A program made the position numbers and the translations under genes. Under the pieces are notes generated by a model. That model had not been told where the DNA came from and ran no database searches. It was given only the letters and a program-made list of their open reading frames with translations. Positions 32,675-53,937 of a stretch of 64,000 nucleotides of DNA are shown in pieces; the stretch's first letter is position 1; each line of letters opens with the position of its first letter. The stretch comes from an uncultured Pseudomonadales bacterium (GTDB lineage Bacteria; Patescibacteriota; Microgenomatia; UBA1400; PJMF01), in the NCBI GenBank assembly GCA_964574595.1, contig CAZNOF010000005.1, forward strand, positions 49,686-113,685, given 5' to 3'.

Positions 32675-32681
32675 ATAGTAA

Positions 32682-33635
32682 TTAGAACAAGTATAAGATG
32701 GTCATGGTCAACAGGCCAAACAAAAATATAGTGCTGAGTAACGGCTTATCTCGCAAGACTACTTTTTCTGGAGATTCACCTTCATTATCCTCATAGACTA
32801 ATTGAAGATATCTCATCACTCCAAAAATGACCAGTGGAACCGTAGCCATCAAGAGTTTTTGTGATTGCAGAGTTTTTGGCAATATTGTGTAGACACTTAA
32901 CAACCTACCGGCTGGAGAGACACTTTCAGTTTGGAAAGCAAATAGCGCGTAGGTTAACCAGGTCGCATTGGCAAACATGCCGGTGTATTGATCGAGCAGA
33001 CGTTCACTGTATCGTTTCAGCGTTTTTCGAGTTTCTCCCATCTCTTTCCCTTTCAGGAGAGTTCGTTCACTTTGTCGTTTCCCCACAGCTAAGAAGAGTG
33101 AGGCTGAGAGGACTGTCAATAAAAACCAAACGCTGGTGTGAAGATTCACAACCACAGCTCCGGCATAGATTCTCAGTAAAAAGCCGGCTGCAATTGATAA
33201 AACGTCAATAATGGCGATGTGCTTTAGTTTTTTGGCATAAAGGATTTGCAACACAAAATATGCTGCCACTGTCAGTCTGAAGAATGGTGAAAAAGAGAAA
33301 CTGGCTAAGAAGACAATCGCTAGACCAGCCGCGGCCACACAGGCAGCTACCGGAATTGGTAATGCTCCAGAAGCAATTGGACGCTTCTTTTTAAAGGGAT
33401 GCATCCGATCCGCTTCAACGTCCACAATGTCATTAATGATGTAAATCGAAGAAGTCAAAAAACAGAAAACAATCACCGCGAACGTAACGGTTAAGAAGTA
33501 AGGCAGTTCGTTGGCAGGCTGATAGAAAAAGAACCCAGAAAATGTAAGAGCTGCGTAGAGAGCTAAGTTCTTTATCCATTGCCGTGGTCGGGCGGATTTA
33601 GCAATGAGGTAAATGAGACTGTTTTCCATAATCAA
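32682..33635 (-). CDS. UbiA-family polyprenyl-phosphate phosphoribosyltransferase (decaprenyl-phosphate 5-phosphoribosyltransferase/DPPR synthase-like)
   Basis: PRQWIKN near the N-terminus and NDIVDVEADRMHPFKKKRPIASG, which matches the DPPR-synthase version of the UbiA Asp-rich motif. The protein has about 8 TM segments. Confidence 0.6.
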   Translation of the reverse strand: MIMENSLIYLIAKSARPRQWIKNLALYAALTFSGFFFYQPANELPYFLTVTFAVIVFCFLTSSIYIINDIVDVEADRMHPFKKKRPIASGALPIPVAACVAAAGLAIVFLASFSFSPFFRLTVAAYFVLQILYAKKLKHIAIIDVLSIAAGFLLRIYAGAVVVNLHTSVWFLLTVLSASLFLAVGKRQSERTLLKGKEMGETRKTLKRYSERLLDQYTGMFANATWLTYALFAFQTESVSPAGRLLSVYTILPKTLQSQKLLMATVPLVIFGVMRYLQLVYEDNEGESPEKVVLRDKPLLSTIFLFGLLTMTILYLF

Positions 33636-34711
33636 ATTCTTGTTTTGTTTGTTTGAATCTTCGCCCAGATCAGGAATCCAAAGACAGAACAGGTGACAAT
33701 TCCGAAGGTGATTACCTTACCTAAACTGCTCAAGTATAATGATAACACACCCAAAATAAGAGTCGTTAGCCAGTAAAAAATTGCGATCCTTCTGCGCCCC
33801 CAACCCAAGACATCCATCAGTTTATGATGTAAATGACCGCGATCACCCCAGAAAGGCGACTTACCAGCTGCCAATCTTCTCGCAATAGTAAAAATCGCAT
33901 CTGCTGTGGGAATGGCCAAGACCATGATTGTGGTAGCAATTTTGGCTCCAGAAAGAATTGACAAAACAGCTAGCAAAAAGCCAGCCAAGGAGCCAGCACC
34001 ATAACCAGGCATGATTTTTTGAGGATAGACGTTCCAGACTAAGAGTCCAGCAAATGAGCCTGCTGCTATTAATGCTAGCGCTTGCGTATTGAATTGACTT
34101 GGATCGTCGGCAAACCGGCCAGCCAGGAAGCTAATAAAGACTAATGCTATTGCCACAAAACCGGGCATCTGACCATCTACACCTTTGGACCAGTTCACGA
34201 TATTCATATTCCAAACTATGAAAAAAAGCGCTAAAAGATCAGATAAAATCCAAACTGAATGTTGCGTGCCGAAAAGTTGGAACGAGTAAATCAAGGTATC
34301 AAGATGAATGACACCCTGACCAAAAGGATTGGTGACATAGGCAATACCAATTCCAGATCCCACAACAATCAGAGCGGCAATCAACCCAACTCCAAGCCTA
34401 TAGAGTGGATGAATGTCTTTTACGTCATCAATGAAGCCAGTGATTGCCAGGAGAAGTGAGGCAAAAAGAATTGCTAAAAGATACTTATCAACGTGCAGAA
34501 AGAGGAATGAGCAGATCAGCAAACTACTAAAAATGACAATCCCGCCACCTCTTGGAACTGGCTGCTTATGTGTCGTTTTGACGTGAGTAGCAAGCTGTGG
34601 ATCTTCTACCCAACCGTGTTTTTTATACCAATAGATAATTGCTGGGGTAATCAAGAGGGCGAGTAAAAAACTGCAGCCAAAGAAAATCATATTAAGAGAT
34701 GATATAGACAA
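33632..34711 (-). CDS. Polyprenyl-phosphate N-acetylhexosamine-1-phosphate transferase (GT4 MraY/WecA family)
   Basis: A 359-aa polytopic protein with the GFIDDVKD motif and the cytoplasmic-loop organisation of MraY/WecA. It overlaps the downstream UbiA gene by 4 nt. Confidence 0.6.
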   Translation of the reverse strand: MSISSLNMIFFGCSFLLALLITPAIIYWYKKHGWVEDPQLATHVKTTHKQPVPRGGGIVIFSSLLICSFLFLHVDKYLLAILFASLLLAITGFIDDVKDIHPLYRLGVGLIAALIVVGSGIGIAYVTNPFGQGVIHLDTLIYSFQLFGTQHSVWILSDLLALFFIVWNMNIVNWSKGVDGQMPGFVAIALVFISFLAGRFADDPSQFNTQALALIAAGSFAGLLVWNVYPQKIMPGYGAGSLAGFLLAVLSILSGAKIATTIMVLAIPTADAIFTIARRLAAGKSPFWGDRGHLHHKLMDVLGWGRRRIAIFYWLTTLILGVLSLYLSSLGKVITFGIVTCSVFGFLIWAKIQTNKTRI

Positions 34712-35078: not shown

Positions 35079-36707
35079 TCAGGTGGGAATCTTTTTCCAG
35101 AGAATGAAGTGCTCAAAGTTCAGGTTGGGAATGTAGTTCTGTTCAAGGTACATTTTAATTTCATCTGGAACTGTTTCCCCCTTAATTACTACAGCATAAA
35201 TTGGACGCACTTTCACTAAATCAAGGTATGTCTCGTGTTCTGCTTGGAAGTCTCTAATATGAAACAGAACGGTAAATCTGCCGACAGGAGATTTTCTGGA
35301 TAGGGCATACAGGCCTGGATCTGTTCCCCAGATGAAAAGGTGATTGCCAGGTGAGGCAGAGATGATTTTGGCGGCCGCATAATTATCCGGCATCAGCACT
35401 TCAAAGCTATCCCGGTACTCTTTGCCGGTCATTTGACCCGTTAGAAAGCGATAAAAACGTTGGTAATAACTCAGCGTGGCATATGGCCGTACGTTAAGTA
35501 GAACCAGGGCACTTACAAAAACAAAAATGAGTGCAGCTGAGGTTACTATTTCCAGACTTCTGCCGATTTGTTCACCGGCACTTTGTTTCACTTTTCTAGT
35601 GATAGTCAACGTTTTGACAATGCCCAGGAGTTCACCAATTAGCAGCGCAAAAGGTGGTACGAGCTGCAAAAAGTAGTGCGGATAAGGTCGATTCGACAGG
35701 AGTGTTGCAAAAAAGGCGAGGGCAAACCAAGTGGCAACAAATTGAAACTTATGTCGCATATATCGAGATGAAAGAGATACGAGGCCGATGATTGCGGCAG
35801 CAATCAAAGCTTTTCCACCTAGAGTGAAAGCAAAACTAATAAGTGGATTGGCAAACTCAAGCTTCCATGAACCGGCATACCTGAAGTTATAGAGTAAGCC
35901 ATAATCGAGATATGCTTTGCCTGAACCGCGGACGACAAAATAAATGATTGAAGCGATAATTGGAGTGATAACGCCAGCAGACACAACAAGTGTTGAGACA
36001 ATTGTTTCTTTCGCTTTGACCATCCAAGTTCGGTTTTGGCGATATCGATCAAAGATCGGCAATGCTCTAAGCAGACTAAACCAACCAACACTCAAGAATG
36101 CTAGGACATCAAATAAGCCAGGAACTTTCGTTAAAATACCCAAGCCAAAGAAACAACCCGCAACGAACAGCCACAGATTTTCTGTCTTATGAGTGGCCAG
36201 TTCAGGGCCAGGAATCGATTTTTCTGACGCGAGAAATTGGTTTAAAGACTGCGTTTTCATTAAACTGGCAGCTCCCAACAGTACGAACGTAATCACAAAT
36301 AACTCGCCGTTTGGAATATTTCCTTCCAGTGCGGGAAGCGTTGTTAAGACAACGAATACAAGAGTTGAAAAATAAGTAATCCAGTTGCGGGAGAAGAGTT
36401 TTTTACAAAGGGTATAAAAAATAATTGTGCTGATCGTCATGGCACCAATATTCAGCACGCGGAACCAGAATTGATTGGGCACCATGGCTAAGTAATAAAT
36501 GATTGGTGTCTTGTGGTCAATGATTTGGCTATAGAGCTTCTCTCCTTGAACCATTGCCCGACCAATCGTTAAGTAAATTGCTTCGTCTCCATACCAATAT
36601 GGTTCCACCAAGTTGGGGATTCGCAGCATCAGCATGAGAGCTAACAAAATTAAAATTGGAATGTGTTGATCAAGGAAGTAATCGACTTTTTTGAACCATT
36701 TAAACAT
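35079..36707 (-). CDS. GT-C fold glycosyltransferase, ArnT/PMT-like (GT83/GT39 family)
   Basis: A 542-aa polytopic protein with an N-terminal YWYGDEAIY acidic motif typical of lipid-carrier-dependent GT-C enzymes. Confidence 0.5.
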   Translation of the reverse strand: MFKWFKKVDYFLDQHIPILILLALMLMLRIPNLVEPYWYGDEAIYLTIGRAMVQGEKLYSQIIDHKTPIIYYLAMVPNQFWFRVLNIGAMTISTIIFYTLCKKLFSRNWITYFSTLVFVVLTTLPALEGNIPNGELFVITFVLLGAASLMKTQSLNQFLASEKSIPGPELATHKTENLWLFVAGCFFGLGILTKVPGLFDVLAFLSVGWFSLLRALPIFDRYRQNRTWMVKAKETIVSTLVVSAGVITPIIASIIYFVVRGSGKAYLDYGLLYNFRYAGSWKLEFANPLISFAFTLGGKALIAAAIIGLVSLSSRYMRHKFQFVATWFALAFFATLLSNRPYPHYFLQLVPPFALLIGELLGIVKTLTITRKVKQSAGEQIGRSLEIVTSAALIFVFVSALVLLNVRPYATLSYYQRFYRFLTGQMTGKEYRDSFEVLMPDNYAAAKIISASPGNHLFIWGTDPGLYALSRKSPVGRFTVLFHIRDFQAEHETYLDLVKVRPIYAVVIKGETVPDEIKMYLEQNYIPNLNFEHFILWKKIPT

Positions 36708-36751
36708 TCGTTCATTATGAACAACATTTTGAAAAACCGCAAATCGAAAAG

Positions 36752-38248
36752 TTAGACTTTTTCTGTGACGCGGTACTCGATATATTTCCCTAACATTAAT
36801 CTAGTATGAGCATCTAGACCAGGCAGGGCTGAGAAGAAGAATCCGATAATGGGTAAAAGTAAGAACTCAACAGGTTGCAAAATATACGAGAAAACGTTTC
36901 GCTTGTTTGGTCGAGGGGGTCTGTTCATTGCGTCAATCACAAAAATAACCAACATACTGATCAGTGACATGGTCAATAATCCAGAAGTTACTTGAGGCAA
37001 TCGAGTACCTAATGCTGTTCTAGCAAAAACAGGATTAAGAAGTGGCGGCAAAATTGCAGAGGTGGTAATTGCGAACCAGTTGACTGGCCACAAGAAATGG
37101 TCCTCAACAATTTTAAAGACGCGGATTGTTTTATCCCAAAATGGGACACCTTCAGACAGCACATACTGGCGAACAATGTAGGCGTCGTCACTAACACCCC
37201 ATGCCCAACGCACCAACTGTTGATACTGATTTGTCATAGCTGAGACGAAGCCCTTGGCTTCGGCAGCATCCGCATAGATTGGTAAGAAGATTGGTTGAAC
37301 CTCAAAATCGCCTTTTTTGGCAAAGTACGATTTAAAGAATAACCGATAATCTTCTGGAATAACGTCAGTATCCCAATAGCCAATGTCATCGACATGCTTC
37401 AAGGAAGTTGAGTAGGTAGAAAAGTTCACTAATCGATCTTTTCTCATTAAAATATAAAGTTGGGAAACAGAAAAAACTGATGCTAAAACGCGAATGGGAG
37501 GGTAGACCTTCCAAATATTATTATAAAAAACAATGCCGCCCTGCCAAATTTTATTGAATGGCTTGTCGGTTGTTAGGAAGTCGTGAGTGAGACTAGCAAA
37601 GTAGCTTTTGTGAAATAGTGCGTCAGCATCTTCACTCGTAATGGTAACTTTTTTGATATCTAAACCTTCTTGATCAATGAGCAATTTTTTAGCAGCCTTA
37701 GCACCCCAGCTTGTATTAGATGATTTACCTTTTACTTCACCCTGAATATCAGGATGTTCCGTTGTCCAGAGATCTCCAAACAAATGTCCAAACTCCTTTT
37801 TGAGTAAAATAGCTTTTTCTCGTGCGACTTCACCTTCTCGTTCTTCAAAAGAGAGCATAATGTGGAGACGTTTAATTGGGTATGTTTGTTCCGAGAGAGC
37901 CGCTAAGGTTCTTTGAAGCGTGGTCAACGGTTCTTGATAGGTTGGAATGACGATAATGTGATGAATACTGTCCCAAGTTTGAGGGTACTCTTCTTGCAAG
38001 TAGCCAATCCAGTTAAACTTCATGGAGGCTCTCATTTTAAAGTTAGCTACGATGGAAAGAATGGCGATCGAGACAGATCTGTAGAGCCAGTACACTGCAA
38101 AAGTGATCACGTAGTAAGCCACAATGGAAGGAAAGACAAACGAACCCCAGATTGGAAAGAGAATTAGTGACCAAGAAACAAATCCAGGCAAAATTTCTAA
38201 AAAGCGTTGGGTTCTGATTGGGTGACGACGAAAGTACGTTTTGATCAT
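36752..38248 (-). CDS. Membrane-embedded family 2 glycosyltransferase (GT-A fold with N- and C-terminal TM bundles)
   Basis: IVIPTYQEP and a SEDAD (DXD-like) motif in a central cytoplasmic domain, flanked by TM segments. Confidence 0.5.
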   Translation of the reverse strand: MIKTYFRRHPIRTQRFLEILPGFVSWSLILFPIWGSFVFPSIVAYYVITFAVYWLYRSVSIAILSIVANFKMRASMKFNWIGYLQEEYPQTWDSIHHIIVIPTYQEPLTTLQRTLAALSEQTYPIKRLHIMLSFEEREGEVAREKAILLKKEFGHLFGDLWTTEHPDIQGEVKGKSSNTSWGAKAAKKLLIDQEGLDIKKVTITSEDADALFHKSYFASLTHDFLTTDKPFNKIWQGGIVFYNNIWKVYPPIRVLASVFSVSQLYILMRKDRLVNFSTYSTSLKHVDDIGYWDTDVIPEDYRLFFKSYFAKKGDFEVQPIFLPIYADAAEAKGFVSAMTNQYQQLVRWAWGVSDDAYIVRQYVLSEGVPFWDKTIRVFKIVEDHFLWPVNWFAITTSAILPPLLNPVFARTALGTRLPQVTSGLLTMSLISMLVIFVIDAMNRPPRPNKRNVFSYILQPVEFLLLPIIGFFFSALPGLDAHTRLMLGKYIEYRVTEKV

Positions 38249-43906: not shown

Positions 43907-44395
43907 TTATTTAGTAACTTCTTCAATTTTCTTGGCAGTTGCTTGAACTGGGCCATAGAATGATCTCATCTCAAATAAGACATAAAGACCGATCAAAATA
44001 CCAACCACGCCTCCAACGATTGATGAGAAGTTTCCACCAATTGCACTCACTACTGAACCGGCCGCACTTAATAGGTTAATCCAGAAAAGTAAGATCCAGC
44101 CCTTCATTTCGCGGTTTTTTAAAGGGGTAAAAGCAGAGTACATTAAGAAGGCTGAGACAGCACTTATGACTAATGCAATTAAACTGAATACTGGATTAGC
44201 TGCCATCCACGATAACGCGTTTACAACACCGAGGACTTCGGCAATGAGGCCGAGGAGCACCAACCATGGGGAAATTTGCACTAAAATTTCAGTGATATTT
44301 TTCGGTAAATGTGGAAGTGTCTTAAAAGGATCTGCCACTTGATCGATAAATTTCATTGATTCTGCATCCGTCAATTTGTCTAAAATACTTGCCAT
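43907..44395 (-). CDS. Hypothetical membrane protein (162 aa, ~4 TM)
   Basis: Hydrophobic segments and no recognisable motif. Confidence 0.45.
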   Translation of the reverse strand: MASILDKLTDAESMKFIDQVADPFKTLPHLPKNITEILVQISPWLVLLGLIAEVLGVVNALSWMAANPVFSLIALVISAVSAFLMYSAFTPLKNREMKGWILLFWINLLSAAGSVVSAIGGNFSSIVGGVVGILIGLYVLFEMRSFYGPVQATAKKIEEVTK

Positions 44396-44482: not shown

Positions 44483-45457
44483 ATGCACGCGAAAAAAGAA
44501 GAAAATGAAATCTATTTCTTAACAGGAGCTGCCGGTTTTATTGGTGCCAATTTATTGCGTAGATTACTAGATGAATCTTGTGCAGTGCATATTCTCTTAA
44601 AAGAGTCATCAAATTGTTGGAGAATTGCTGAAGTCTTAAAACATCCAAAACTAACTGTTCACTACGGTGATCTCGCTGATCAGGAAGCACTCTCAGAGCT
44701 ACTGAGAAATGTGCAACCAACTGTCGTTTATCATCTAGCCACAAGAGGCGCTTACTCTTCTCAAAATGATCCCAAAGATATTTTTGAGACAAACCTTTTG
44801 GGGACTCTTCATCTGCTTGAAGTTGCCAGAGGCATGCCTCTCAAGCTATTTGTGAATACGAGCTCCACCTCAGAATATGGCAGCAAAAACCAGCCAATGA
44901 AAGAAGATGATGTGCTTGAGCCAGATAGTTTTTATGCAATTAGTAAAGTAGCTGCCACGCATGCTTGCCATCAGTACTATGTACAGTACTCAGTTCCGGT
45001 GGTGACTCTTCGCCTCTTCTCAGTCTTTGGACCATGGGAATCGCCAACCAGATTATTTCCCACATTGCTTGAATCACTTCGTTTGGGAAACATGATGAAC
45101 ATGGTGAAGCCAGAAACTGCCCGGGACTTTATTTTTATTTCTGATGTTATTGATCTTTATCGCAAGATTGAACTTCTGAGTAAGTTCCCAGGAGAAGTTT
45201 TCAACGTGGGATCCGGTAAACAAACGAGTCTCAAGCAACTGTCCGAAGTTGCCGTTCAAGTCACAAAGAAGAAAAGTCAGTTTGCCTGGAAAGCGGTACC
45301 TTCAAAAAGTTGGGACAAAGACATTTGGGTAGCTGATATGCATAAAACCTACAAGACATTGAACTGGTCAGCCAAAGTTTCAGTAGAAGAAGGTTTAAGA
45401 GAGTATTGGTCATGGTATTTGCATCATCATCAAATCTATCACTCTATGCTACACTAA
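44483..45457 (+). CDS. NAD-dependent sugar epimerase/dehydratase (extended SDR)
   Basis: GAAGFIGANL Rossmann motif and the YAISK (YxxxK) catalytic motif, in a 324-aa protein. Confidence 0.8.
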   Translation: MHAKKEENEIYFLTGAAGFIGANLLRRLLDESCAVHILLKESSNCWRIAEVLKHPKLTVHYGDLADQEALSELLRNVQPTVVYHLATRGAYSSQNDPKDIFETNLLGTLHLLEVARGMPLKLFVNTSSTSEYGSKNQPMKEDDVLEPDSFYAISKVAATHACHQYYVQYSVPVVTLRLFSVFGPWESPTRLFPTLLESLRLGNMMNMVKPETARDFIFISDVIDLYRKIELLSKFPGEVFNVGSGKQTSLKQLSEVAVQVTKKKSQFAWKAVPSKSWDKDIWVADMHKTYKTLNWSAKVSVEEGLREYWSWYLHHHQIYHSMLH

Positions 45458-45463
45458 TCGCCA

Positions 45464-46189
45464 ATGTCGTTCCGTCTCTCTTCTCTCAGTCGCACCCAGT
45501 TACGGCTTCGTCAGGAAATACTTGAGATAAGTCATCGGCATCATTTTCCACATTTGGGTTCTTGCTTAAGTATGGTCGACATACTTGATTCCATATATAA
45601 AGTGAAAAGACCGAACGACGTATTTATTCTTTCCAATGGTCATGCCGCAATCGCTTACTACGTGATTCTTAGAAAGAATGGACTATTAACAGAAAAAGAG
45701 GTTGATGAACTGATGGTTCATCCCGATGCTGCTCCTGAGCGGGGAATTTCGGTTTCTTCTGGGAGTTTAGGACAAGGCTTACCCATTTCAATTGGTTGGG
45801 CACTGGCTAATCGAAAGAGAAAGATTTTTTGCACCATTTCTGACGGCGAGTGTATGGAAGGGAGTATTTGGGAAAGTTTGAGAATAATTCAGGAACTGAA
45901 GTTAGACAATCTTTGCATAACCATTAATGCCAACGGTTGGGGAGCGTATCGACCTATTGATCTGTCATTATTGAAAAGGCAACTAAAGGCCTTACGATTT
46001 CTAGTAAAAGAAGTGAATGGGCATGACCTTCCCGAACTGCTTGCAGCTTTGAAAAGTCAAAAGAAACAAGGCTCAGAAGCCATGGAAATAATTTTTGCTA
46101 AAACGAATGTTGAACAGTATCCTTTTTTGAAGGGGCAGGCAGCGCATTATCATGTGATGACTCAAGAGAACTATGATTCAACTCGTTAA
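45464..46189 (+). CDS. Transketolase-like protein, N-terminal (TPP-binding) subunit
   Basis: HLGSCLSMVDIL...SNGHAAIAYYVIL matches the split-transketolase N-terminal half. Confidence 0.65.
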   Translation: MSFRLSSLSRTQLRLRQEILEISHRHHFPHLGSCLSMVDILDSIYKVKRPNDVFILSNGHAAIAYYVILRKNGLLTEKEVDELMVHPDAAPERGISVSSGSLGQGLPISIGWALANRKRKIFCTISDGECMEGSIWESLRIIQELKLDNLCITINANGWGAYRPIDLSLLKRQLKALRFLVKEVNGHDLPELLAALKSQKKQGSEAMEIIFAKTNVEQYPFLKGQAAHYHVMTQENYDSTR

Positions 46190-46676
46190 CCTACGCCACG
46201 AATTCGCAGAGTTAGTTCACGCTGAAATGCGTAATAATCCAGATGTCTGGGTGATAACTGGAGATCTGGGATATGGAATGTGGGACAAAATTATGTCAGA
46301 TTTTCCCGACAGATTTATAAATACAGGAGCTGCTGAACAAGCCATGATGGGACTGGCAGTAGGATTGGCACAGTCTGGCAAGATCCCGTTAGTTTACTCA
46401 ATTACTCCTTTTCTGTTGTATCGCCCATTTGAGACGATCCGGAACTACATTCATCAGGAGAAAATTCCAGTCAAGCTAGTTGGGTCGGGCCGGAATCGAG
46501 ACTACGAAAATGAAGGGTTTTCTCATTGGGCCGAAGAAGATACGGCAGTTATGAAGATCCTCTCAAATATTCACTCCTACTGGCCATCAGATTTAGCGGA
46601 ACTAAAAAAAGTTACGAAAAAAATGTTTCAGACAAATCAGCCCTTTTACATCAACTTAACGAAAGTAACAAAATGA
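46173..46676 (+). CDS. Transketolase-like protein, C-terminal (pyrimidine-binding) subunit, short
   Basis: ITGDLGYGMWD...NTGAAEQAMMGLAVGLAQSGKIPLVY matches the Transket_pyr domain. It overlaps the upstream gene by 17 nt, and its TGA stop overlaps the ATG of the next gene. Confidence 0.6.
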   Translation: MIQLVNLRHEFAELVHAEMRNNPDVWVITGDLGYGMWDKIMSDFPDRFINTGAAEQAMMGLAVGLAQSGKIPLVYSITPFLLYRPFETIRNYIHQEKIPVKLVGSGRNRDYENEGFSHWAEEDTAVMKILSNIHSYWPSDLAELKKVTKKMFQTNQPFYINLTKVTK

Positions 46677-47605
46677 AAAAGAAAAAACTAAGCGCTGTGA
46701 TTGCTTGCTACAGAGATGCTCAAGCTATTCCAGTCATGTATCAGCGCTTAACTCAGATGTTTAAAAAGTTAGCAATCGATTACGAGATTATCTTTGTCAA
46801 TGATGGTAGCCCTGATAATACGGAGGAAGTGCTTCAAAAGTTGGTAAAAAAAGATGCGCACGTGATTGGCATAAACCATTCCCGAAACTTTAGTTCGCAG
46901 ATGGCGTTTACGAGTGGGATGAATATTGCATCGGGAGATGCCTTAGTTTTCATGGATGGGGATTTACAGGATCCTCCTGAGCTAATTCCTGACTTTTTTA
47001 AAAAATATCAAGAAGGTTATGATGTCGTTTATGGTATCAGAGTGAAACGTGATGAAGTCTGGTATATGCAGCTCCTCTACAAGCTCTTTTACCGGTTTTT
47101 TTCAAGACTTTCCTATCTGCACATGCCGGTAGATGCGGGTGATTTTTCGCTGATTGATCGAAAAGTTATTAATGCCCTGAAACAGTTCCCAGAGCGGGAC
47201 CGATTTATTCGAGGCCTCAGAGCATGGGTTGGTTTTAAGCAAATTGGCGTGCCATATGTTCGACCAAAGAGAATGTTTGGTGTGAGTACCAATAATTTTT
47301 TCAAGAATTTCCGATGGGCAATTAAAGGTATTTTTTCATTCTCGTACGTACCATTGGAGATGATCACGAATTTGTCACTCATTGTTTGTATCGCCTCATT
47401 TCTCGGAATTATTTGGCAAATTATCGATCGCATCGTGGATCCGGGTACACCAAGAGGTATTACTACTATCTTGGTGGTAGTACTTTTTATTGGAGCAATC
47501 CAGCTTTTAGCTTTGAGTATCTTGGGTGAATATTTGATGAAGATTTTTGAGGAAGTGAAACAAAGACCTCCATATATTGTAAAAAGTATTTTTAAGAAGA
47601 TATGA
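46673..47605 (+). CDS. Polyprenyl-phosphate glycosyltransferase, GT2 Dpm1/GtrB/ArnC-like
   Basis: The start was reassigned to the ATG at 46673 (MKKKKLSAVIACYRD...). GT-A signature with FVNDGSPD and two C-terminal TM helices, as in GtrB/ArnC. Confidence 0.7.
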   Translation: MKKKKLSAVIACYRDAQAIPVMYQRLTQMFKKLAIDYEIIFVNDGSPDNTEEVLQKLVKKDAHVIGINHSRNFSSQMAFTSGMNIASGDALVFMDGDLQDPPELIPDFFKKYQEGYDVVYGIRVKRDEVWYMQLLYKLFYRFFSRLSYLHMPVDAGDFSLIDRKVINALKQFPERDRFIRGLRAWVGFKQIGVPYVRPKRMFGVSTNNFFKNFRWAIKGIFSFSYVPLEMITNLSLIVCIASFLGIIWQIIDRIVDPGTPRGITTILVVVLFIGAIQLLALSILGEYLMKIFEEVKQRPPYIVKSIFKKI

Positions 47606-49407
47606 TCTCTGTCACAGCTCTCAATGTGTTATTGCTACTAGCGGGCGCCGCTGGCATATTTATTTACCGACGCTTACACCCAACAAAAGAATTGAACCTC
47701 TTTTTGATACTCATGCTGTTTTCAATTGTTCCCTTAGTTAGTGTTTGGCGTAAGGGGAGTTACCAAAGTGGTGATTTCAATGATCACGTCTATTTCTTCA
47801 TGTCGTTTTACAATTCATTGCAGGATGGGATCTGGTTTCCTCGTTGGAGCGGCGGATTTTGTGGCGGATATGGATATCCACATATCCAATTTTTTTATCA
47901 TCTACCATATTATCTTGGATCCTTCTTTCACTACTTCTTAGGAACAAGTTTTGTTGATAGTCAAAAACTAGAAATATGTGTGTCTTTCTTTGGTGCAGCT
48001 GCAGCCATGTTTCTCTGGCTACGGACTGAGTTTGATCAGAAAGCAGCCTTTCTGGGGAGTGTGCTTTATATTTTGTCTCCTTATCTTTTAGCTGGAGCAC
48101 ATTTTCGAATTACACTTGGTGAAGGCTTAGGCTCTTTTTTGGTTCCTCTTATTTTGTGGTGTATAAACAAATCGTTTCAGTCAGTCAAACATAAATGGCC
48201 TTACTGGTGGGGGATAACTTTTTTTTACACCCTACTGATACTGGCGCACCACGTGGTTCCGCTACTGAGCTTGCCGTTTGTTGTGAGCTACTTTTTATTT
48301 AAATATTGGCAGTCTGAACGTAGAGATCGAAAACAATTTATTTATTTTGGCATCGCGCTTGCTACGTCTTTTCTCGTAACAAGTTACCATTGGGCGCCAA
48401 TTTTGCTTGAAACAAAGTGGATTCTCCAAAATCAGTTGCGGGTGATTGTTTTCCCTCCTATTTCATCCTATTTTTATTCTCCGTGGCGATACGGATTGCT
48501 AAATCAAGGTCATTATGGAGAACTGACTTGGACGGTGGGATATATGCACTGGCTAGTTATTCTGTTATCTACGGTAATACTCTTTGTTAAAAAAGTGACT
48601 AGGCGAGTAAAAGCGCGATTGTTATTTTTGCTGGGTTGGTTCCTGTTGCTTTTCATTATGATGCTGCCATTTACCGAGCCATTGTGGCTGGTAACACCAC
48701 TCCTGAATAATTTTCAGTTTGCATTCAGAATGCTTTTTTTAATTAATCTCGTTGTTGCTGCCTTGACTGCGGTACTGGTGTCTCAAGCTGAGGTTTTGTA
48801 TTTAACTTTTTACAGAAGCCTAAAGGGAAAACTTCCTTCAGAATTTCCAAGGAGACTATCAGATACTCACATCGGCTGGATAATTACATTATGTGTTTTT
48901 TCGACAAGTGCGTTTACCGTCCTGAATTGGGGACAGCGGACAGTGATTCCAGACTTAGATGACACCAAGTTGGAGTTGATGTTACCAAGTTGGTGTGACC
49001 AAGTGGCAATTCCGAATTGGCTCGATCAAAAAACATTTAAAAGCCTGCCGCCAAAGTCTGAGAATCTAGTAGTTGTAGATGGAACTGCCTTGATACAGCA
49101 AAAACAGTATGGAATGGAGGAACATGCCTATTCCGTCATTGCCACAGATTCGGCTACTCTTCGTGAAAACACTACCTATTTTCCTGGTTGGACGGCGTAC
49201 CTCGATGGGAAGATAATTCCAATCTCTATTTCTGATCGACAGTACTTTGGAATTATGCAAGTTGAAGTTCCGGCTGGCATGCATGATTTGCGTTTTGCAT
49301 ACGAACATACCGCTGTCCAAGTGCTCTTCGAAAAAATTAGTCTCGCTACGTTAGCAATCTGGAGTATAGTTACCGTTATCTGCCTCTATGAAAGCAAATA
49401 TGACTAA
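47602..49407 (+). CDS. Large polytopic membrane protein, probable GT-C-type glycosyltransferase (the Gtr-specific/YfhO-like partner of the GT2)
   Basis: A 601-aa protein with at least 12 TM segments and a large C-terminal extracytoplasmic domain. It overlaps the GT2 gene by 4 nt. Its position mirrors three-component Gtr-type glycosylation systems. Confidence 0.4.
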   Translation: MISVTALNVLLLLAGAAGIFIYRRLHPTKELNLFLILMLFSIVPLVSVWRKGSYQSGDFNDHVYFFMSFYNSLQDGIWFPRWSGGFCGGYGYPHIQFFYHLPYYLGSFFHYFLGTSFVDSQKLEICVSFFGAAAAMFLWLRTEFDQKAAFLGSVLYILSPYLLAGAHFRITLGEGLGSFLVPLILWCINKSFQSVKHKWPYWWGITFFYTLLILAHHVVPLLSLPFVVSYFLFKYWQSERRDRKQFIYFGIALATSFLVTSYHWAPILLETKWILQNQLRVIVFPPISSYFYSPWRYGLLNQGHYGELTWTVGYMHWLVILLSTVILFVKKVTRRVKARLLFLLGWFLLLFIMMLPFTEPLWLVTPLLNNFQFAFRMLFLINLVVAALTAVLVSQAEVLYLTFYRSLKGKLPSEFPRRLSDTHIGWIITLCVFSTSAFTVLNWGQRTVIPDLDDTKLELMLPSWCDQVAIPNWLDQKTFKSLPPKSENLVVVDGTALIQQKQYGMEEHAYSVIATDSATLRENTTYFPGWTAYLDGKIIPISISDRQYFGIMQVEVPAGMHDLRFAYEHTAVQVLFEKISLATLAIWSIVTVICLYESKYD

Positions 49408-50350
49408 ACCGCACTTTCATCAAACAGAGTGTGCCCTGTGTGGCTCAACAGATCGACATGATTATGAAATTGTCTATCCAGCCACCTACCTTCAGACTGA
49501 AGTTGAGAGTCTGTTTTCTGCCAGAAGACTTCCTGACGGAATTCACTCGCAAATTGTCAGATGTCTGAGAGACGGGCAAGTTCGCTCGACTCCTGTGCTC
49601 GAAAATTCAGTTCTTTCCAAGTTGTATCGCGAGAGCGAATTTACCTATCAAGAGGAAGTCACAAATTTGACTCAGACGTATATGAATGCTCTTGAAGATG
49701 TCTTGCCGTATCTGAAAGCGTCGGATAAGGTTCTGGAAATTGGCTGTGGATCGGGCTTCATGTTGTCGGCACTCAAAGCAAGAGGGTTTAAAAATGTTTA
49801 CGGAGTTGAGCCAAGTCAGAAAGCTATAGACAAAGCAGACAAATTTATTCAATCACGAATTACTCAAAAGCTGTTTTCAAGAAAACTTTACAAAGAAGAA
49901 ACATTTTCATTCATTTTCATTTTGCAAACCCTTGACCATATTCCTAACCCGAAAGAGTTCCTCGCAGACTGCCTAGCAGTTTTAAAACCTGGTGGGTTTA
50001 TTTTGTCCTATCATCATGATGTTTCTAGTTTGTCAGCGACTCTCCTAGGGGAAAAAAGCCCAATTTTCGATATTGAACATACCTATCTCTACGACCACCG
50101 CACCAGTTGTTTGCTTCTTGAAAAGAACGGTTTCATTGTGCGCAAAGCCTACTCACCCTTGAACGTACTGTCCTTGTATCACCTGGCTTGGTTAAGCCCT
50201 TTACCTACGTTAATGAAAAACTTTCTGCTGAAGGAAAATGCATTTTCAAAGCAAATGCTTCATTCAATTAAAGTGGAGATTCCCCTAGGTAATACCTGTA
50301 TTATTGGCCAAAAACCGAGAAGCGTCCCACGATCAGATAAAATAGTTTAA
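49388..50350 (+). CDS. Class I SAM-dependent methyltransferase with an N-terminal Cys-rich (zinc-ribbon-like) segment
   Basis: Motif I VLEIGCGSGFM and the post-I acidic residue. It overlaps the upstream gene by 20 nt. Confidence 0.65.
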   Translation: MKANMTKPHFHQTECALCGSTDRHDYEIVYPATYLQTEVESLFSARRLPDGIHSQIVRCLRDGQVRSTPVLENSVLSKLYRESEFTYQEEVTNLTQTYMNALEDVLPYLKASDKVLEIGCGSGFMLSALKARGFKNVYGVEPSQKAIDKADKFIQSRITQKLFSRKLYKEETFSFIFILQTLDHIPNPKEFLADCLAVLKPGGFILSYHHDVSSLSATLLGEKSPIFDIEHTYLYDHRTSCLLLEKNGFIVRKAYSPLNVLSLYHLAWLSPLPTLMKNFLLKENAFSKQMLHSIKVEIPLGNTCIIGQKPRSVPRSDKIV

Positions 50351-50359
50351 AATGAAAGC

Positions 50360-51244
50360 ATGTGGAAGCGCCTTCTCATTTTTGCCGTAGCTTTGGTGGT
50401 TGATGTCGCGTTGCTTCGCTGGGGGTGGCAAACCCAACAGTTCAATTATCTGACCGACATTGGTAAGCGGCTTTTTGAAGAGCCAATATTGCCTTGTACT
50501 ATTCCAATTAGATATCGGATTGATCAGATAGATCCGGAATTCAAACTTTCATCTGAGGACTTTATAAAGGATGCCTCAGCAGCTGCTCAAATTTGGAACA
50601 CAGCCAAGGGTAACCCAGTTTTTATCTACGATCCTCAAGGTGAGTTAAGCGTGAACTTAGTTTATGACGGTCGCCAAAAGCTGAGTGCCCAGATTAATCA
50701 AATGCAGAGTAGCTTACAAACAGCAGCAAAATCGTTAACTCCCCAAGAACAACAATTCAGAAAAGAAGTAGCCGCTTATGAACAAAAAGCGAGCGCCTTG
50801 AATGCAGAAATTGTCTCCTGGAATGAAAAGGGCGGTGCCCCGCAAGAAACTGCGGACCAACTGAATAATCGGGTGACCGAACTCAAGGCTGAAGCAGACA
50901 GACTCAATACTGAATCTGAACGATTAAACAAAATAAGTAGTAACTACAATGCTCAAGTTGGCACGCTTAATAAAACAGTAGACACATTTAACTCTCAACT
51001 GAATGAAAAGCCAGAGGAAGGTATTTTCATCGGTGACGAGAACAAAATTGAGATCTACTTCAATAATGGCAAGCAAGAACTGGTTCACACCTTGGCTCAT
51101 GAAATGGGTCATGCTTTAGGAATGAATCACGTTGATGACAAAAAAGCTATTTTATACGAATCGACAAATTTATCTGTTAAACCCTCGGAAAAAGACCTAC
51201 TCGAGCTAGAGAAAGCTTGTGCACCTCCAGCTCAAAAGAACTAA
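50360..51244 (+). CDS. Membrane-anchored zinc metalloprotease of the metzincin type with a coiled-coil stalk
   Basis: An N-terminal TM, a Q/E/N-rich coiled region and a C-terminal HTLAHEMGHALGMNHVDD (HExxHxxGxxH) motif. Confidence 0.55.
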   Translation: MWKRLLIFAVALVVDVALLRWGWQTQQFNYLTDIGKRLFEEPILPCTIPIRYRIDQIDPEFKLSSEDFIKDASAAAQIWNTAKGNPVFIYDPQGELSVNLVYDGRQKLSAQINQMQSSLQTAAKSLTPQEQQFRKEVAAYEQKASALNAEIVSWNEKGGAPQETADQLNNRVTELKAEADRLNTESERLNKISSNYNAQVGTLNKTVDTFNSQLNEKPEEGIFIGDENKIEIYFNNGKQELVHTLAHEMGHALGMNHVDDKKAILYESTNLSVKPSEKDLLELEKACAPPAQKN

Positions 51245-51269
51245 ACGAGCTGAAATTCTCGAGACAGTA

Positions 51270-51277
51270 CTGTATAA
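51270..51277 (+). promoter_or_regulatory. Extended -10 promoter element (TGTATAAT) giving a very short leader for the GH16 gene
   Basis: TGnTATAAT lies 11 nt upstream of the ATG at 51289, and no SD is present. Confidence 0.35.
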
Positions 51278-51288
51278 TCCCACTTCCT

Positions 51289-52332: not shown

Positions 52333-52710
52333 CTATTGTTTCAAAGTTCCAATTTTCAAACTGGTTAATGCCGCTTGAGCATCTGGTCCTTCGTGTTGTG
52401 GCTGTCTACTGAAGAGAGACGTCGCGTCACGGCCGCAGCCCTTGAGAATTTCTTCCCCTCCTGGGTGGTTTGGAATGAAGCTCGTCACGTTGTATACCGA
52501 GCCGCTGACAACTAACCAACAATCTGAGGCCGAGCCGTGCTGTTGCACATCAGACATGCTGTACTCAGCATTTGCTGCAGGAGACGTTTGCGTTGTCGAT
52601 GAATCCGTAGGAGAAGGAGAAGCTTCGATTGTTCCTGAATTGACAGTGGGCTGAGCGGAACAAGCAGTAAACAGTACTAAGGCTGGGAGAAACAGAAGCA
52701 GTTTTTTCAT
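52333..52710 (-). CDS. Lipoprotein with a cytochrome b5-like heme-binding domain
   Basis: Lipobox LFTAC. The b5 signature is WLVVSGSVYNVTSFIPNHPGGEEILKGCGRDATSLF, with a second His downstream. Confidence 0.6.
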   Translation of the reverse strand: MKKLLLFLPALVLFTACSAQPTVNSGTIEASPSPTDSSTTQTSPAANAEYSMSDVQQHGSASDCWLVVSGSVYNVTSFIPNHPGGEEILKGCGRDATSLFSRQPQHEGPDAQAALTSLKIGTLKQ

Positions 52711-52869: not shown

Positions 52870-53937
52870 ATGACACATTCTGAGCAATCTACATTACATA
52901 AAATTAAACTTTTCCTCCTGACTGGATTTTTCTTCATCGTTTCCTCTCAGCAAGTGTTTGCTGGGGGAGGTTCAATCACCCCTATTAACTTTGCAGATAG
53001 TCAACAAGTTACCGGCAAATCATTTAGCCCTGTAGTCGCAGTTAAAGATCCAGCTTCTAACTACTCCTCTCCATGGGTGGGCAAAGAGTTTTCTATTCAG
53101 GCACATGGTGACTTAGCAGGAGCTTCCTGCAGCACAACCCAACGTGTCTCCGACAGCCAAGGTCAGATCAAGGCTGACTGTCACGCTGATGCTTATGGGA
53201 ACTTTGCTTTTGACATAGTCGACTCCTCCGGCGGCAATAATGGTACTTTTAGAGTTATTTTCGTAGAACCTGGACAGGGCAGTGGCTCAGGATTTAATGA
53301 GCAAAGTCCTTCTGGTGAGTACGTGGTGACGATAATCTCTGGTAATAAGACGGTCATGCCAAACCAGGTTTTTTATGTGGAGTCTCAACTAAAAAAAGAT
53401 GGTCAACCTGTAAGTAATTACGATGATGTTGACTACTTCCGCTGGGAAGTCCTTCAAGGCAGTATGGTCATCGTTACTTCTAATCATCTGAACCAAAATC
53501 CCGGAATTAAAGTACCTGATTTAGGAAAAACGGTCATTCGCTGTACAGCTATTATGAAAAATGGGAAAACATACGAATCTGGAGCAGTCACCATTACCGT
53601 GGCCTGGCCAACTCCATCCCCGGTTCCAACCCCAGCAGCAACCTCCCAAACAACGCCAGCTCCTGAGAAGGCATCGCCAAAATCGGCACAGAACTCACCA
53701 TCAACGCCAACACCAGCAACATCACCTGTTGCTACACCAAAAGCGTCAACTCGCCCATCAGCCAGCTCCACTCCTGTGGCTTCTGATAGTGCTTCAGCTA
53801 CTCCGTCTGCTGTGCAGGCTCCAGCACCTGAAGTTGTATACGCATCCCATCTAGCTTCAAGATTTAGCATTGTGGCTCGAGCCCAGAACTTGGCAAAAAT
53901 CATTAGTAACTTTTTTACTCATATTTGGAAACGGTAA
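52870..53937 (+). CDS. Secreted protein with a Pro/Thr/Ser/Ala-rich C-terminal linker and a short C-terminal amphipathic tail
   Basis: Signal peptide (LFLLTGFFFIVSSQQVFAGG), a ~240-aa globular part and a PT-rich region encoded by ~53600-53835. Confidence 0.5.
   Translation: MTHSEQSTLHKIKLFLLTGFFFIVSSQQVFAGGGSITPINFADSQQVTGKSFSPVVAVKDPASNYSSPWVGKEFSIQAHGDLAGASCSTTQRVSDSQGQIKADCHADAYGNFAFDIVDSSGGNNGTFRVIFVEPGQGSGSGFNEQSPSGEYVVTIISGNKTVMPNQVFYVESQLKKDGQPVSNYDDVDYFRWEVLQGSMVIVTSNHLNQNPGIKVPDLGKTVIRCTAIMKNGKTYESGAVTITVAWPTPSPVPTPAATSQTTPAPEKASPKSAQNSPSTPTPATSPVATPKASTRPSASSTPVASDSASATPSAVQAPAPEVVYASHLASRFSIVARAQNLAKIISNFFTHIWKR

Follow-up and report, generated by a model that had tools for sequence, protein, structure and literature searches.

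A miniature split transketolase in a probable lipid-linked glycosylation operon of a Patescibacteria-like bacterium

The window analysed here, a 64-kb stretch of DNA, carries a block of six genes at 44483-50350 that encode an SDR, the two subunits of a small transketolase (TK), a GT2 glycosyltransferase, a polytopic membrane protein of 601 aa and a SAM-dependent methyltransferase (Table 1). The block is a genuine operon. Three related assemblies have the whole block in synteny, with amino-acid identities of 51-89%, and its GC content of 0.41 matches the 0.43 of the whole window, so these are genuine genes and not chance ORFs. All six ORFs had been called in an earlier note on this DNA and were found on the + strand at the coordinates it gave. 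The GT2 gene was also said to be translationally coupled to the gene for the 601-aa protein, and their start and stop codons do overlap, as ATGA, at 47602; the same overlap joins the gene for the Pyr-domain subunit of the transketolase (TKP) to the GT2 gene at 46673. The two transketolase ORFs, described as joined by ATGA too, in fact overlap by 17 nt (46173-46189).

Table 1. Features of the operon and its surroundings, with positions in the 64-kb window
Feature	Position	Strand	Properties
PMT-like gene	30947-32674	opposite to operon	PF02366 1e-17, PF16192 1e-21; 14 kb upstream of GT2
Decaprenyl-phosphate phosphoribosyltransferase-type UbiA	32682-33635	opposite to operon	separate operon; adjoins PMT-like GT-C
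Second PMT-like protein	35079-36707		
162-aa protein	43907-44395	-	about 4 TM helices by hydropathy; divergently transcribed
SDR	44483-45457	+	324 aa; PF01370 6e-49, PF16363 1e-50; first gene of operon
TK PP-domain subunit A	45464-46189	+	241 aa; PF00456 1e-11; NCBIfam transketolase NF004559 7e-33
TK Pyr-domain subunit B	46173-46676	+	167 aa; PF02779 1e-20
GT2	46673-47605	+	310 aa; PF00535 4e-27; two C-terminal TM helices
GT-C-fold polytopic protein	47602-49407	+	601 aa; about 11 hydrophobic segments
SAM methyltransferase	49388-50350	+	320 aa; PF13489 3e-22
Coiled-coil zinc metalloprotease, membrane-anchored	50360-51244	+	PF00413 2.5e-6
Promoter-like site	51250-51278		upstream of GH16 ATG
Secreted GH16 glycoside hydrolase	likely ATG 51289, ends by 52317	+	PF00722 3.6e-17

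Sequence comparison supports a polyprenyl-phosphate glycosyltransferase of the GtrB/ArnC/PgfS type as the identity of the GT2. Residues 5-306 align with GtrB sll0501 (PDB 5EKP; E 4.8e-74), and ArnC is the second-best match (5.6e-42). The alignments run end to end; they cover the DxDLQDPPE motif as well as the two TM helices near the C-terminus, which lie at about 230-248 and 266-284. The best NCBIfam models were PgfS (1.6e-74) and ArnC (1.1e-45), each below its equivalog cutoff (251 against 500 bits and 156 against 529 bits). The Dpm1/GtrB-type architecture proposed earlier for this protein is borne out by its grouping with lipid-phosphate GT2s.

The SDR is, judged by its motifs and matches, an NAD-dependent sugar epimerase/oxidoreductase of the extended-SDR type. 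Its best PDB match is the UDP-GlcA 4-epimerase of B. cereus (6ZL6, 4e-31), it reaches no NCBIfam equivalog cutoff, and the motifs GxxGxxG, NTGSSSEYG (STSEYG in the window) and YxxxK are kept in 20 orthologues from the cassettes described below. The methyltransferase belongs to a class I SAM fold family with an N-terminal Cys zinc-ribbon, in which CxxC...C, FSARRxPDxxH and H231 are conserved; a second CxxC pair has lost one Cys in the window's lineage. Aligned by hhalign with PF08421/PF13489/PF08484-type proteins, it gave a probability of 96% (E 3e-9) over 248 columns from the zinc ribbon, and a profile search found the KijD1-type sugar 3-C-methyltransferase 5T64 (7.8e-9). Against Pfam, both PF08421 and PF08484 fell below significance, and the C-terminal PF08484 domain is absent. 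The enzyme appears to be remote kin of the NDP-ketosugar C-methyltransferases, and could methylate either carbon or oxygen.

The transketolase is undersized. Subunit A matches the N chain of a split transketolase (PDB 6YAK, 3.6e-19) and subunit B the C chain (6YAJ, 1.5e-23), the latter only over residues 48-192 of 341. As subunit B ends after the Pyr domain, at 167 instead of 341 aa, the entire C-terminal domain is absent; the 241 and 167 aa of the two subunits are all that is encoded. The earlier note had correctly recognised a split transketolase in the two ORFs, but missed this truncation. Across the family subunit B is 150-185 aa long, and it grades continuously into the ordinary split-TK C subunits of about 300 aa, to which it is about 40% (37-44%) identical. 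The active site is near-canonical. In subunit A, 22 family members agree fully or almost fully at the equivalents of His26, His66, His100, Asp155, Asn185 and His261 (one has Gln for His66); in subunit B the equivalents of Arg358, Glu411 and His473 never vary, that of Arg520 is R/K and that of Asp469 is D/E. The ThDP, Mg and catalytic His residues are thus kept, together with the phosphate binders Arg358 and Arg520. Two positions have changed. All members have Gly in place of His461, a universally conserved phosphate binder, and an aromatic residue stands for Ile187, Trp in 18 of the 22 members.

What is kept across lineages is a cassette of SDR, zinc-ribbon methyltransferase, mini split transketolase and GtrB-like GT2. 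About 20 Patescibacteria-type lineages and one Verrucomicrobiota MAG carry it (loci L006-L024, L028 and L090-L092). The cassette was complete or nearly so at all loci with a TK_N at least 43% identical, and also at the Verrucomicrobiota locus L028, despite a TK_N identity of 37%. The genes are not always in the same order, and the window's GT2 shares 50-71% identity with its cassette counterparts in other lineages. The suggestion that the SDR, transketolase and methyltransferase tailor the sugar, made from the window's DNA, fits this strict co-localisation with the GT2. Phosphatase genes are inserted within the cassette at L006 and L011, and at L026 the mini-TK lies alongside a PfkB kinase and an NTP-transferase; both arrangements hint at sugar phosphates. 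We found nothing on the cassette itself in the searchable literature.

The 601-aa protein has no direct Pfam match of its own; among 40 homologues, PF10131 was found in 36, YfhO in 10 and PMT_2 in nine. The 27 best Foldseek matches of its AF2 model (pLDDT 91.9, pTM 0.91) in the PDB are all GT-C proteins (E 1.4e-5 to 2.5e-2). They include AglB, STT3, ArnT, ALG12, PglB and EmbB, with AftA and AftD among the best, although TM-scores against solved GT-Cs are only 0.30-0.46. D58, E174, H216 and R376 are invariant in the family. Asp58 lies in the first external loop, following a KKK/RR cytoplasmic loop, and an external beta-sandwich domain at about 489-567 is followed by the terminal TM helix. The model and these residues support a membrane GT-C glycosyltransferase of the PTPS_related/YfhO-like family; as the earlier note had predicted, the fold resembles that of GT-Cs and not that of a transporter. 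The grouping of the GT2 and the fold of the 601-aa protein, the two points which that note had singled out as decisive, both came out in favour of its reading.

The GT-C is an exchangeable partner outside the conserved core. Most other lineages have a cassette without it. Large polytopic proteins are found at 20 of the 23 cassette loci, often directly beside the cassette genes; these are of diverse families by BLAST, some with PMT_2 and lectin domains. It could be argued that the 601-aa protein is a polymerase/ligase-like or other membrane protein inserted by chance, and that another GT-C uses the GT2 product. Besides its absence elsewhere, this would fit with the presence of its distant homologues in polysaccharide clusters without transketolase or cassette GT2, and of at least two further GT-C-like proteins in the window. 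The alternative users put forward are the two PMT-like proteins (Table 1). We nevertheless consider chance insertion improbable: the gene overlaps the GT2 stop codon, members of its family adjoin the cassette independently at L009, L010, L090 and L092, both its fold and its invariant residues mark it as a GT-C glycosyltransferase, and the PMT-like gene has a donor synthase of its own alongside.

This last point bears on a Ppm1 and PMT partnership suggested earlier for the GT2. The PMT-like gene exists, with clear domain matches, but it adjoins its own UbiA-type donor enzyme, so nothing ties it to the operon's GT2. The three-component Gtr logic invoked for the operon holds for the GT2 and the GT-C. 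No flippase was found, whether as a GtrA match or as a conserved small multi-TM ORF in other cassette loci, so that two of the three components can be recognised and the third cannot. Of the products of nearby genes, only the 162-aa protein might act as a flippase or in an accessory role, and it is an unproven candidate; it matches no Pfam family at E<0.01, has no GtrA match and is kept only in three closely related, fully syntenic loci. Downstream, the metalloprotease and GH16 genes are found only in L001-L003 and are lineage-specific neighbours outside the conserved module. The only two Ser/Thr-rich ORFs of the window also lie just downstream of the operon.

Neither the operon nor the rest of the window encodes a nucleotidyltransferase or kinase, so the path from the transketolase product to a nucleotide sugar is missing. 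[quoted passage not shown] The near-canonical active site suits plain pentose-phosphate metabolism just as well as a dedicated role. The continuity of the Pyr subunit with normal C subunits, the IMPase/FBPase-like and phosphoglycerate-mutase-like phosphatases of central-metabolism type near the cassette in some lineages, and the 4-epimerases as nearest solved relatives of the SDR are all in keeping with this account. A housekeeping enzyme would not, however, be expected to keep SDR, methyltransferase and GT2 neighbours through about 20 divergent lineages and a Verrucomicrobiota MAG while their order is shuffled, nor to be coupled to a GT2 by start and stop codons. The family-wide changes at His461 and Ile187 also speak against it, as does the location of other mini-TKs inside nucleotide-sugar clusters (L026, L029). 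We regard it as a possible but doubtful account.

An account that needs no kinase or nucleotidyltransferase is that the mini-TK acts directly on an NDP-ketosugar, made by the SDR through oxidation of an NDP-hexose, and adds a two-carbon ketol, with C-methylation beside the keto group following and a branched or chain-extended sugar passing to the GT2. YerE or E1-like enzymes, which take part in making branched-chain sugars, offer the model for such a step. The tight TKP-GT2 coupling, the strict co-occurrence with SDR and methyltransferase, the likeness of the latter to NDP-4-ketosugar C-methyltransferases from the zinc ribbon onwards, the family-wide Gly in place of His461 and the equally general lack of a C-terminal domain can all be read in its favour. 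We reason, too, that the distance in atoms from C4 to C1-O-P in an NDP-4-ketohexose equals that from C1 to C4-O-P in erythrose-4-phosphate, which could allow the retained arginines to bind the alpha-phosphate of the former. Transketolases, however, use aldehydes as acceptors, and none is known with a ketone or a nucleotide sugar as substrate. The phosphatases at L006 and L011 and the kinase and NTP-transferase at L026 indicate free sugar phosphates, and the SSSEYG of the SDR differs from the TDE/TSE signatures of dehydratases and decarboxylases. Ketol addition seems unlikely to us.

It is probable that the operon serves extracytoplasmic glycosylation of the Gtr/Pgf/Arn type in an uncultivated Patescibacteria-like bacterium, with a mini-TK dedicated to it. 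The overall scheme is of a familiar type: most likely, a modified sugar is placed on a membrane lipid carrier and then transferred to an extracellular target. In the cytoplasm, the SDR, mini-TK and methyltransferase would produce or tailor a non-standard sugar. As a dedicated pathway enzyme, the mini-TK may still work on sugar phosphates, the reading that we prefer, and yield a special ketose-phosphate precursor, to be activated by the product of a gene outside the operon. The SDR could form a keto-sugar intermediate, which the methyltransferase would then methylate beside the keto group. The GT2 would load the sugar from its nucleotide donor onto polyprenyl phosphate and, once the lipid-linked sugar had been flipped to the outside, the GT-C would pass it to an extracytoplasmic acceptor, perhaps a cell-wall glycan or the Ser/Thr-rich proteins encoded directly downstream. 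An undersized transketolase module is thus kept across many tiny uncultivated bacteria, with no described role in such glycosylation pathways.

Two precedents count for this scheme, the Pgf system (PMC12041528) and the SDR systems of undecaprenyl-P pentofuranoses (PMC11127046). In Pgf of Streptococcus mutans (PgfS, PgfE, PgfM1, PgfM2), a GtrB-type GT2 works with an epimerase and with YfhO-type GT-Cs, and the sugar goes to disordered, Ser/Thr-rich protein regions on the outer side of the membrane (PMC12041528). As in our operon, a GtrB-type GT-A protein, SDR epimerase and GT-C are encoded together, and the Ser/Thr-rich ORFs lie just 3' of ours; Pgf lacks a transketolase and methyltransferase, and our GT-C is of a PF10131-like family and not YfhO proper. 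In the pentofuranose systems (mycobacterial DPPRS/DprE1-E2/Aft; PPPRS, SDR epimerase and GT-C of the Citrobacter O-antigen), also of three components, an SDR acts in the cytoplasm on the undecaprenyl-P-linked sugar before a GT-C uses it outside (PMC11127046). These systems load ribose from PRPP through a UbiA-type enzyme, whereas the operon uses a GT2; the window's UbiA-type enzyme sits in its separate operon.

O-antigen glucosylation by the Gtr systems of Shigella and Salmonella phages (GtrA flippase, GtrB, type-specific Gtr GT-C), whose structural prototype is Synechocystis GtrB (5EKP), provides a parallel to a conserved donor module with a variable GT-C, gtrAB being likewise combined with a type-specific gtr gene. 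No GtrA-like protein was found for the operon, and its donor module has three extra enzymes (SDR, mini-TK and methyltransferase), so plain glucose is unlikely to be the sugar. In the Arn pathway of lipid A (ArnA, B, C, D, E/F, T), an SDR-type enzyme modifies the UDP-sugar, an ArnC-type GT2 loads undecaprenyl phosphate and the GT-C ArnT transfers the sugar outside. The operon shares these three steps in outline, but has no aminotransferase, formyltransferase, deformylase or ArnE/F, and its host probably makes no lipid A.

Among single enzymes, C-methyltransferases of the TcaB9/KijD1/TylCIII type (PF08421, PF13489 and PF08484) share the Cys zinc-ribbon, SAM core and conserved His region with the operon's enzyme, which differs in lacking their C-terminal domain. 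The closest solved relatives of the mini-TK are the split-gene transketolase of Carboxydothermus hydrogenoformans (6YAK/6YAJ) and E. coli TktA, with which it shares the ThDP, Mg and catalytic His residues. It differs from split and canonical transketolases in its missing C-terminal domain, its Gly for His461 and its aromatic residue for Ile187, and while they are found among pentose-phosphate genes, its own context is a lipid-linked glycosylation cassette.

All six plus-strand genes of the operon lie where the earlier note had placed them. ATGA start/stop overlaps are found at the junction of the second transketolase subunit gene with the GT2 gene and at that of the GT2 gene with the gene for the 601-aa polytopic protein, while the two transketolase subunit genes (TKN, with the PP domain, and TKP, with the Pyr domain) overlap by 17 nt and the 601-aa protein and methyltransferase genes by 20 nt. 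The tight coupling that the note had described thus holds for the whole block, but its ATGA overlap between the two transketolase genes is instead the 17-nt overlap. As the GC content of the operon is the same as that of the rest of the window, we rejected the possibility of a recently transferred island. Synteny, from the gene for a 162-aa divergent membrane protein through those for a metalloprotease and a GH16 protein, is shared with three related assemblies at 51-89% protein identity. Scans for promoters and terminators gave nothing better than chance level. At the far end of the window (62001-64000) GC falls to 0.34 over a gene for a KAP-family P-loop NTPase (669 aa, 61947-63956), and this end may be foreign DNA.

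Positions of the operon genes, of two downstream genes for Ser/Thr-rich proteins, and of polytopic proteins that abut the conserved cassette at related loci from other assemblies (L numbers)
Feature	Sequence	Position	Strand	Pfam/NCBIfam match
SDR	window	44483-45457	+	Epimerase/GDP_Man_Dehyd
TKN, ThDP-enzyme subunit, 241 aa	window	45464-46189	+	Transketolase_N
TKP, ThDP-enzyme subunit, 167 aa	window	46173-46676	+	Transket_pyr
GT2, 310 aa	window	46673-47605	+	Glycos_transf_2
Polytopic 601-aa protein (GT-C)	window	47602-49407	+	no direct match
SAM methyltransferase	window	49388-50350	+	Methyltransf_23
Cyt-b5-like lipoprotein with S/T-rich linker	window	52333-52710	-	
355-aa secreted protein, S/T/P-rich tail of ~90 aa	window	52870-53937	+	
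Large polytopic protein abutting cassette	L019	12111-14762		
Large polytopic protein abutting cassette	L017	12305-14977		
Large polytopic protein abutting cassette	L016	11208-13943		
Large polytopic protein abutting cassette	L024	12175-14052		
Large polytopic protein abutting cassette	L023	7192-9084		
Large polytopic protein abutting cassette	L091	5369-7060		
Large polytopic protein abutting cassette	L092	10195-12213		

The GT2 has the Dpm1/GtrB architecture that the earlier note had assigned to it. Its GT-A domain (PF00535, 4.3e-27) carries the DxD metal/nucleotide motif, with MDGDLQDPPEL aligned to DADLQDPPEL of GtrB and D95, D97 and Q99-P102 at least 90% conserved among 24 orthologues, and is followed by two C-terminal membrane helices (hydrophobic segments 230-248 and 266-284). 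Residues 5-306 align with 27-329 of GtrB, the Synechocystis polyprenyl-phosphate glucosyltransferase (5EKP; E 4.8e-74), and the alignment takes in both the DxDLQDPPE motif and the two helices. ArnC structures also match (E 5.6e-42), and this alignment with GtrB and ArnC argues against a GT2 of the cytoplasmic type. The best NCBIfam models were PgfS (250.9 bits, cutoff 500) and ArnC (156.1 bits, cutoff 529), both under their equivalog cutoffs. Judged by sequence, the GT2 belongs to the lipid-phosphate GT2 family and has no orthologue among enzymes whose sugar is known; as it is an orthologue of neither PgfS nor ArnC, their sugar specificities cannot be transferred to it.

The 601-aa protein itself has no Pfam match, even at E<1, to the GT-C clan families PF10131, PF09586 and PF13231. 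A search of a 5.8-billion-protein collection found 44 homologues of about 570-600 aa, and among the 40 that were aligned PF10131 (PTPS_related) was matched by 36, YfhO by 10 and PMT_2 by nine. The AlphaFold2 model built from the homologue alignment (pLDDT 91.9, pTM 0.91) shows some 13 membrane helices, with a beta-sandwich outside the membrane (489-567) and a membrane helix at the end. When the model was compared with the PDB by Foldseek, the first 27 matches were exclusively GT-C glycosyltransferases, including AglB, STT3, ArnT, AftA, AftD, ALG12, PglB and EmbB (probability 0.96-1.00, E 1.4e-5 to 2.5e-2, with modest TM-scores of 0.30-0.46), and no transporter scored above E 0.1. The alternative of a transporter fold, raised in the earlier note, is thus not borne out. 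Asp58 is invariant in the 40 homologues and H62 nearly so. Asp58 follows TM2, and the preceding TM1-TM2 loop is positively charged (RRLHPTK; consensus KKK), which by the positive-inside rule places Asp58 on the outer face. The catalytic acid of GT-C enzymes lies on the outer face of the membrane. The modelled protein therefore has a predicted GT-C fold, with Asp58 the conserved acid of the first extracytoplasmic loop and a candidate equivalent of the catalytic Asp of ArnT or PglB. From its coupling to the GT2 we infer that it would use a polyprenyl-phosphate-linked sugar at the outer face of its membrane.

The two ThDP-enzyme subunits were closest in PDB searches to the split transketolase of C. 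hydrogenoformans, with the PP domain (PF00456) on one and the Pyr domain (PF02779) on the other. The last residue of TKP, 167, pairs with position 192 in the alignment with 6YAJ, a chain of 341 aa: the second subunit stops after the Pyr domain, and the transketolase C-terminal (TKC) domain is absent from the operon. This mini-transketolase is not peculiar to the window. Pyr-only subunits of 150-185 aa are found family-wide (about 36 clusters at 50% identity) and pass gradually, at about 40% identity, into subunits of the normal length of 300 aa, and the sole fused TKN-TKP protein found (P0404, 427 aa, Pyr part 268-422) also has no C-terminal domain. A DXP synthase or a phosphonopyruvate/sulfopyruvate decarboxylase was rejected, as transketolase models score far higher: NCBIfam gave 114 and 73 bits for transketolase against 29 and 35 for dxs, and the PDB gave E-values of 1e-19 to 1e-23 for split transketolases against 1e-6 for DXS.

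We compared the active sites of 22 members of the family with E. coli TktA, by a numbering in which every key position gave the expected residue. The equivalents of His26, His100, Asp155, Asn185, His261, Glu411 and His473 were invariant, so that the catalytic Glu, the Mg-binding GDG...N motif and the catalytic His set are all represented; His66 was found in 21 of the 22, and Asp469 was Asp or Glu. Among the phosphate ligands, Arg358 was invariant and Arg520 was Arg or Lys, while His461 was Gly in 22/22. Ile187 was aromatic throughout the family (Trp in 18/22), and the Ser385 column was gapped. With the catalytic residues retained and His461 and Ile187 changed, the mini-transketolase looks like a catalytically competent enzyme close to true transketolase, with an altered substrate-phosphate pocket. 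In a separate, Burkholderiales-type clade of normal-length split transketolase-like pairs (L033, L034, L037, L048, L049, L054, L066, L069) the residues at His26, His100, Arg358 and His461 are Tyr, Ser, Ala and Leu, respectively; this is a divergent family that probably lacks the canonical reaction.

We searched for related loci with the 241-aa TKN and then scanned an alignment of its relatives over one genome per species; neighbours were detected by tblastn of all window proteins against the fetched loci, which span 10 kb on each side. Wherever TKN identity was at least 43% the same neighbours were present, forming a cassette of variable gene order: an SDR (29-46% identical to that of the window), a zinc-ribbon methyltransferase (34-49%), the Pyr subunit (55-64%) and the GT2 (50-71%). 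The loci are labelled Woesebacteria, Levybacteria, Woykebacteria, Shapirobacteria, Daviesbacteria and unclassified Patescibacteria, and several MAGs of 28-32% GC bear implausible proteobacterial labels. L015, L016, L017, L020 and other 'MAG TPA_asm' records are titled uncultured Gammaproteobacteria or Pseudomonadales; their GC is 28-32% (40% in L016), their gene content is Patescibacteria-like, and their labels look unreliable. The genomes of Patescibacteria are very small, and their envelopes are for the most part uncharacterised. Retention of the five-gene donor module in many of these lineages, with a GT2 so well conserved across classes, suggests an important surface sugar.

The same cassette of transketolase, GT2 (60% identity), methyltransferase and SDR is found in a Verrucomicrobiota MAG (L028, 8739-17124, 56% GC), followed by a 958-aa protein with PMT_2 and TPR domains. 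Its split transketolase is full-size (264 + 309 aa), yet His461 is already replaced by Gly. This change is therefore independent of the loss of the C-terminal domain, and may be older.

The GT-C partner is outside the conserved core. The family seen in the window adjoins the cassette in L001, L003, L009, L010, L090 and L092; elsewhere the cassette is abutted by other large polytopic proteins, some with PMT_2 and lectin-like domains and most with no Pfam family, and distant homologues of the window's GT-C lie in ordinary polysaccharide clusters without a transketolase. The pattern is one of a conserved donor module with interchangeable transferases. The seven abutting proteins listed in the table measure 563-911 aa and contain 10-19 hydrophobic segments. 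They match no Pfam family, resemble each other little by BLAST, and are candidates for unclassified GT-C-like transferases.

The cassette SDRs share the motifs GxxGxxG, NTGSSSEYG and YxxxK, and among solved structures they come closest to UDP-GlcA 4-epimerase, Pal and dTDP-glucose dehydratases. A 4,6-dehydratase or UDP-GlcA decarboxylase is disfavoured, though no more than that, as the conserved motif is SSSEYG and not TDE/TSE. Members of the methyltransferase family carry an N-terminal CxxC...CxxC ribbon, a conserved FSARRxPDxxH motif and His231; in the lineage of the window the second pair of Cys residues in the ribbon is degenerate. In profile-profile comparison it matched two PF08421/PF13489/PF08484 proteins over 248 columns (96% probability, E 3e-9), beginning at the zinc ribbon; both of these proteins are built like NDP-ketosugar C-methyltransferases. 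Against the PDB the profile matched a KijD1-type sugar 3-C-methyltransferase (7.8e-9) and TcaB9 (3.8e-8), amid many generic methyltransferases. These matches are no more than suggestive; they hint at C-methylation of a keto-sugar intermediate.

The role of the mini-transketolase can be read in several ways. Its genomic contexts give mixed hints about the substrate. The cassette takes in a phosphatase gene at L006 (His_Phos_1) and another at L011 (IMPase family). A Planctomycetaceae TMED10 contig (L026, 2285-9286; duplicate L027) has an even smaller pair (213 + 156 aa) in a run with an FkbM methyltransferase, an SDR, a PfkB kinase, an IspD-like nucleotidyltransferase (524 aa) and a GT61, which looks like a nucleotide-sugar or alditol pathway, and in a Woesearchaeota contig (L029) the pair lies among GMD, DegT, UGDH and fucosyltransferase genes. 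These contexts tie mini-transketolases to specialised sugar synthesis, probably via sugar phosphates. No kinase or nucleotidyltransferase was found, however, in the operon or the 64-kb window. For the window's enzyme a dedicated supplier of sugar phosphates is tentatively the leading possibility, a housekeeping enzyme comes close behind, and direct tailoring of a keto-sugar, which would sit well with the putative C-methyltransferase, is slightly less likely again; none of the three is more likely than not. No Rosetta-stone fusion of the mini-transketolase to the GT2, SDR or methyltransferase was found in a representative search. It is doubtful, as a combined proposal, that the domain-truncated mini-transketolase is a new sugar-tailoring enzyme, a ThDP-dependent ketol transferase building a branched or chain-extended methylated sugar for a polyprenyl-phosphate carrier, and that the cassette is a widespread, unrecognised pathway by which Patescibacteria make a signature sugar of their envelope.

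For the operon as a whole, two-stage glycosylation of the Gtr/Pgf/Arn type is the best-supported reading, and agrees with the overall interpretation of the earlier note once its details are corrected. In this scheme a sugar that is non-standard and probably methylated would be made ready by cytoplasmic enzymes and loaded by the GT2 onto polyprenyl phosphate, and the GT-C would then transfer it outside the cell.

The earlier note had also hinted at a pairing of the GT2 with a PMT-like gene 14 kb away, as in Ppm1 + PMT systems. The gene is real (30947-32674, minus strand, opposite to the operon) and encodes a 575-aa GT-C, but the pairing is disfavoured: the gene adjoins its own phosphoribosyltransferase-type UbiA, and no link with the GT2 was found. 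This UbiA (32682-33635) scores above the NCBIfam cutoff for decaprenyl-phosphate phosphoribosyltransferase (226 against 207 bits) and is followed by a WecA/MraY-like GT4. With its own adjacent donor enzyme, the row (30947-34711, minus strand) looks like a separate PRPP-based lipid-linked pentofuranose system, resembling those of mycobacteria or Citrobacter, in a Patescibacteria-like genome. A precedent for an SDR working directly on a lipid-linked sugar comes from the pentofuranose systems (PMC11127046). The stretch 35079-38248 (minus strand) encodes another PMT-like polytopic protein, of 542 aa (PF02366 2.4e-6), and next to it a protein of 498 aa that matches Glyco_trans_2_3 weakly and no other family; neither has an NCBIfam match.

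The overall logic of the operon is well known. The SDR-methyltransferase-mini-transketolase-GtrB cassette and the domain-truncated transketolase were not found in the literature we searched, itself incomplete. It gave no transketolase in a GtrB/GT-C cassette, and no counterpart to a transketolase without its third domain and one universal phosphate ligand that is fixed in a lipid-linked cassette. If the mini-transketolase acts on the transferred sugar, ThDP ketol transfer would join lipid-linked donor chemistry and a so far unknown sugar would be indicated; if its part is only to provide precursors, the operon as a whole is a common Gtr/Pgf-like system. Either way, the cassette flags candidate GT-C transferases, many of them Pfam-less, in uncultivated bacteria.

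The constant donor module with swappable transferases can be likened to gtrAB with its type-specific gtr gene. Of the three-component Gtr system proposed in the earlier note, the GT2 and GT-C are present but no dedicated small flippase (GtrA/GtcA, SMR, MATE) was found: the adjacent 162-aa membrane protein matched neither PF04138 (GtrA) nor any other transporter family, and a comparison of 20 other cassette loci showed no small multi-TM ORF that is conserved. Ser/Thr-rich low-complexity stretches occur in only two ORFs of the 64-kb window, both a short way downstream from the operon, a weak hint that their products are acceptors for O-glycosylation. The closest described analogue is the Pgf operon of S. 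mutans, with the GtrB-type PgfS, the epimerase PgfE, and PgfM1 and PgfM2, both of YfhO type, which glycosylate Ser/Thr-rich disordered regions (PMC12041528).
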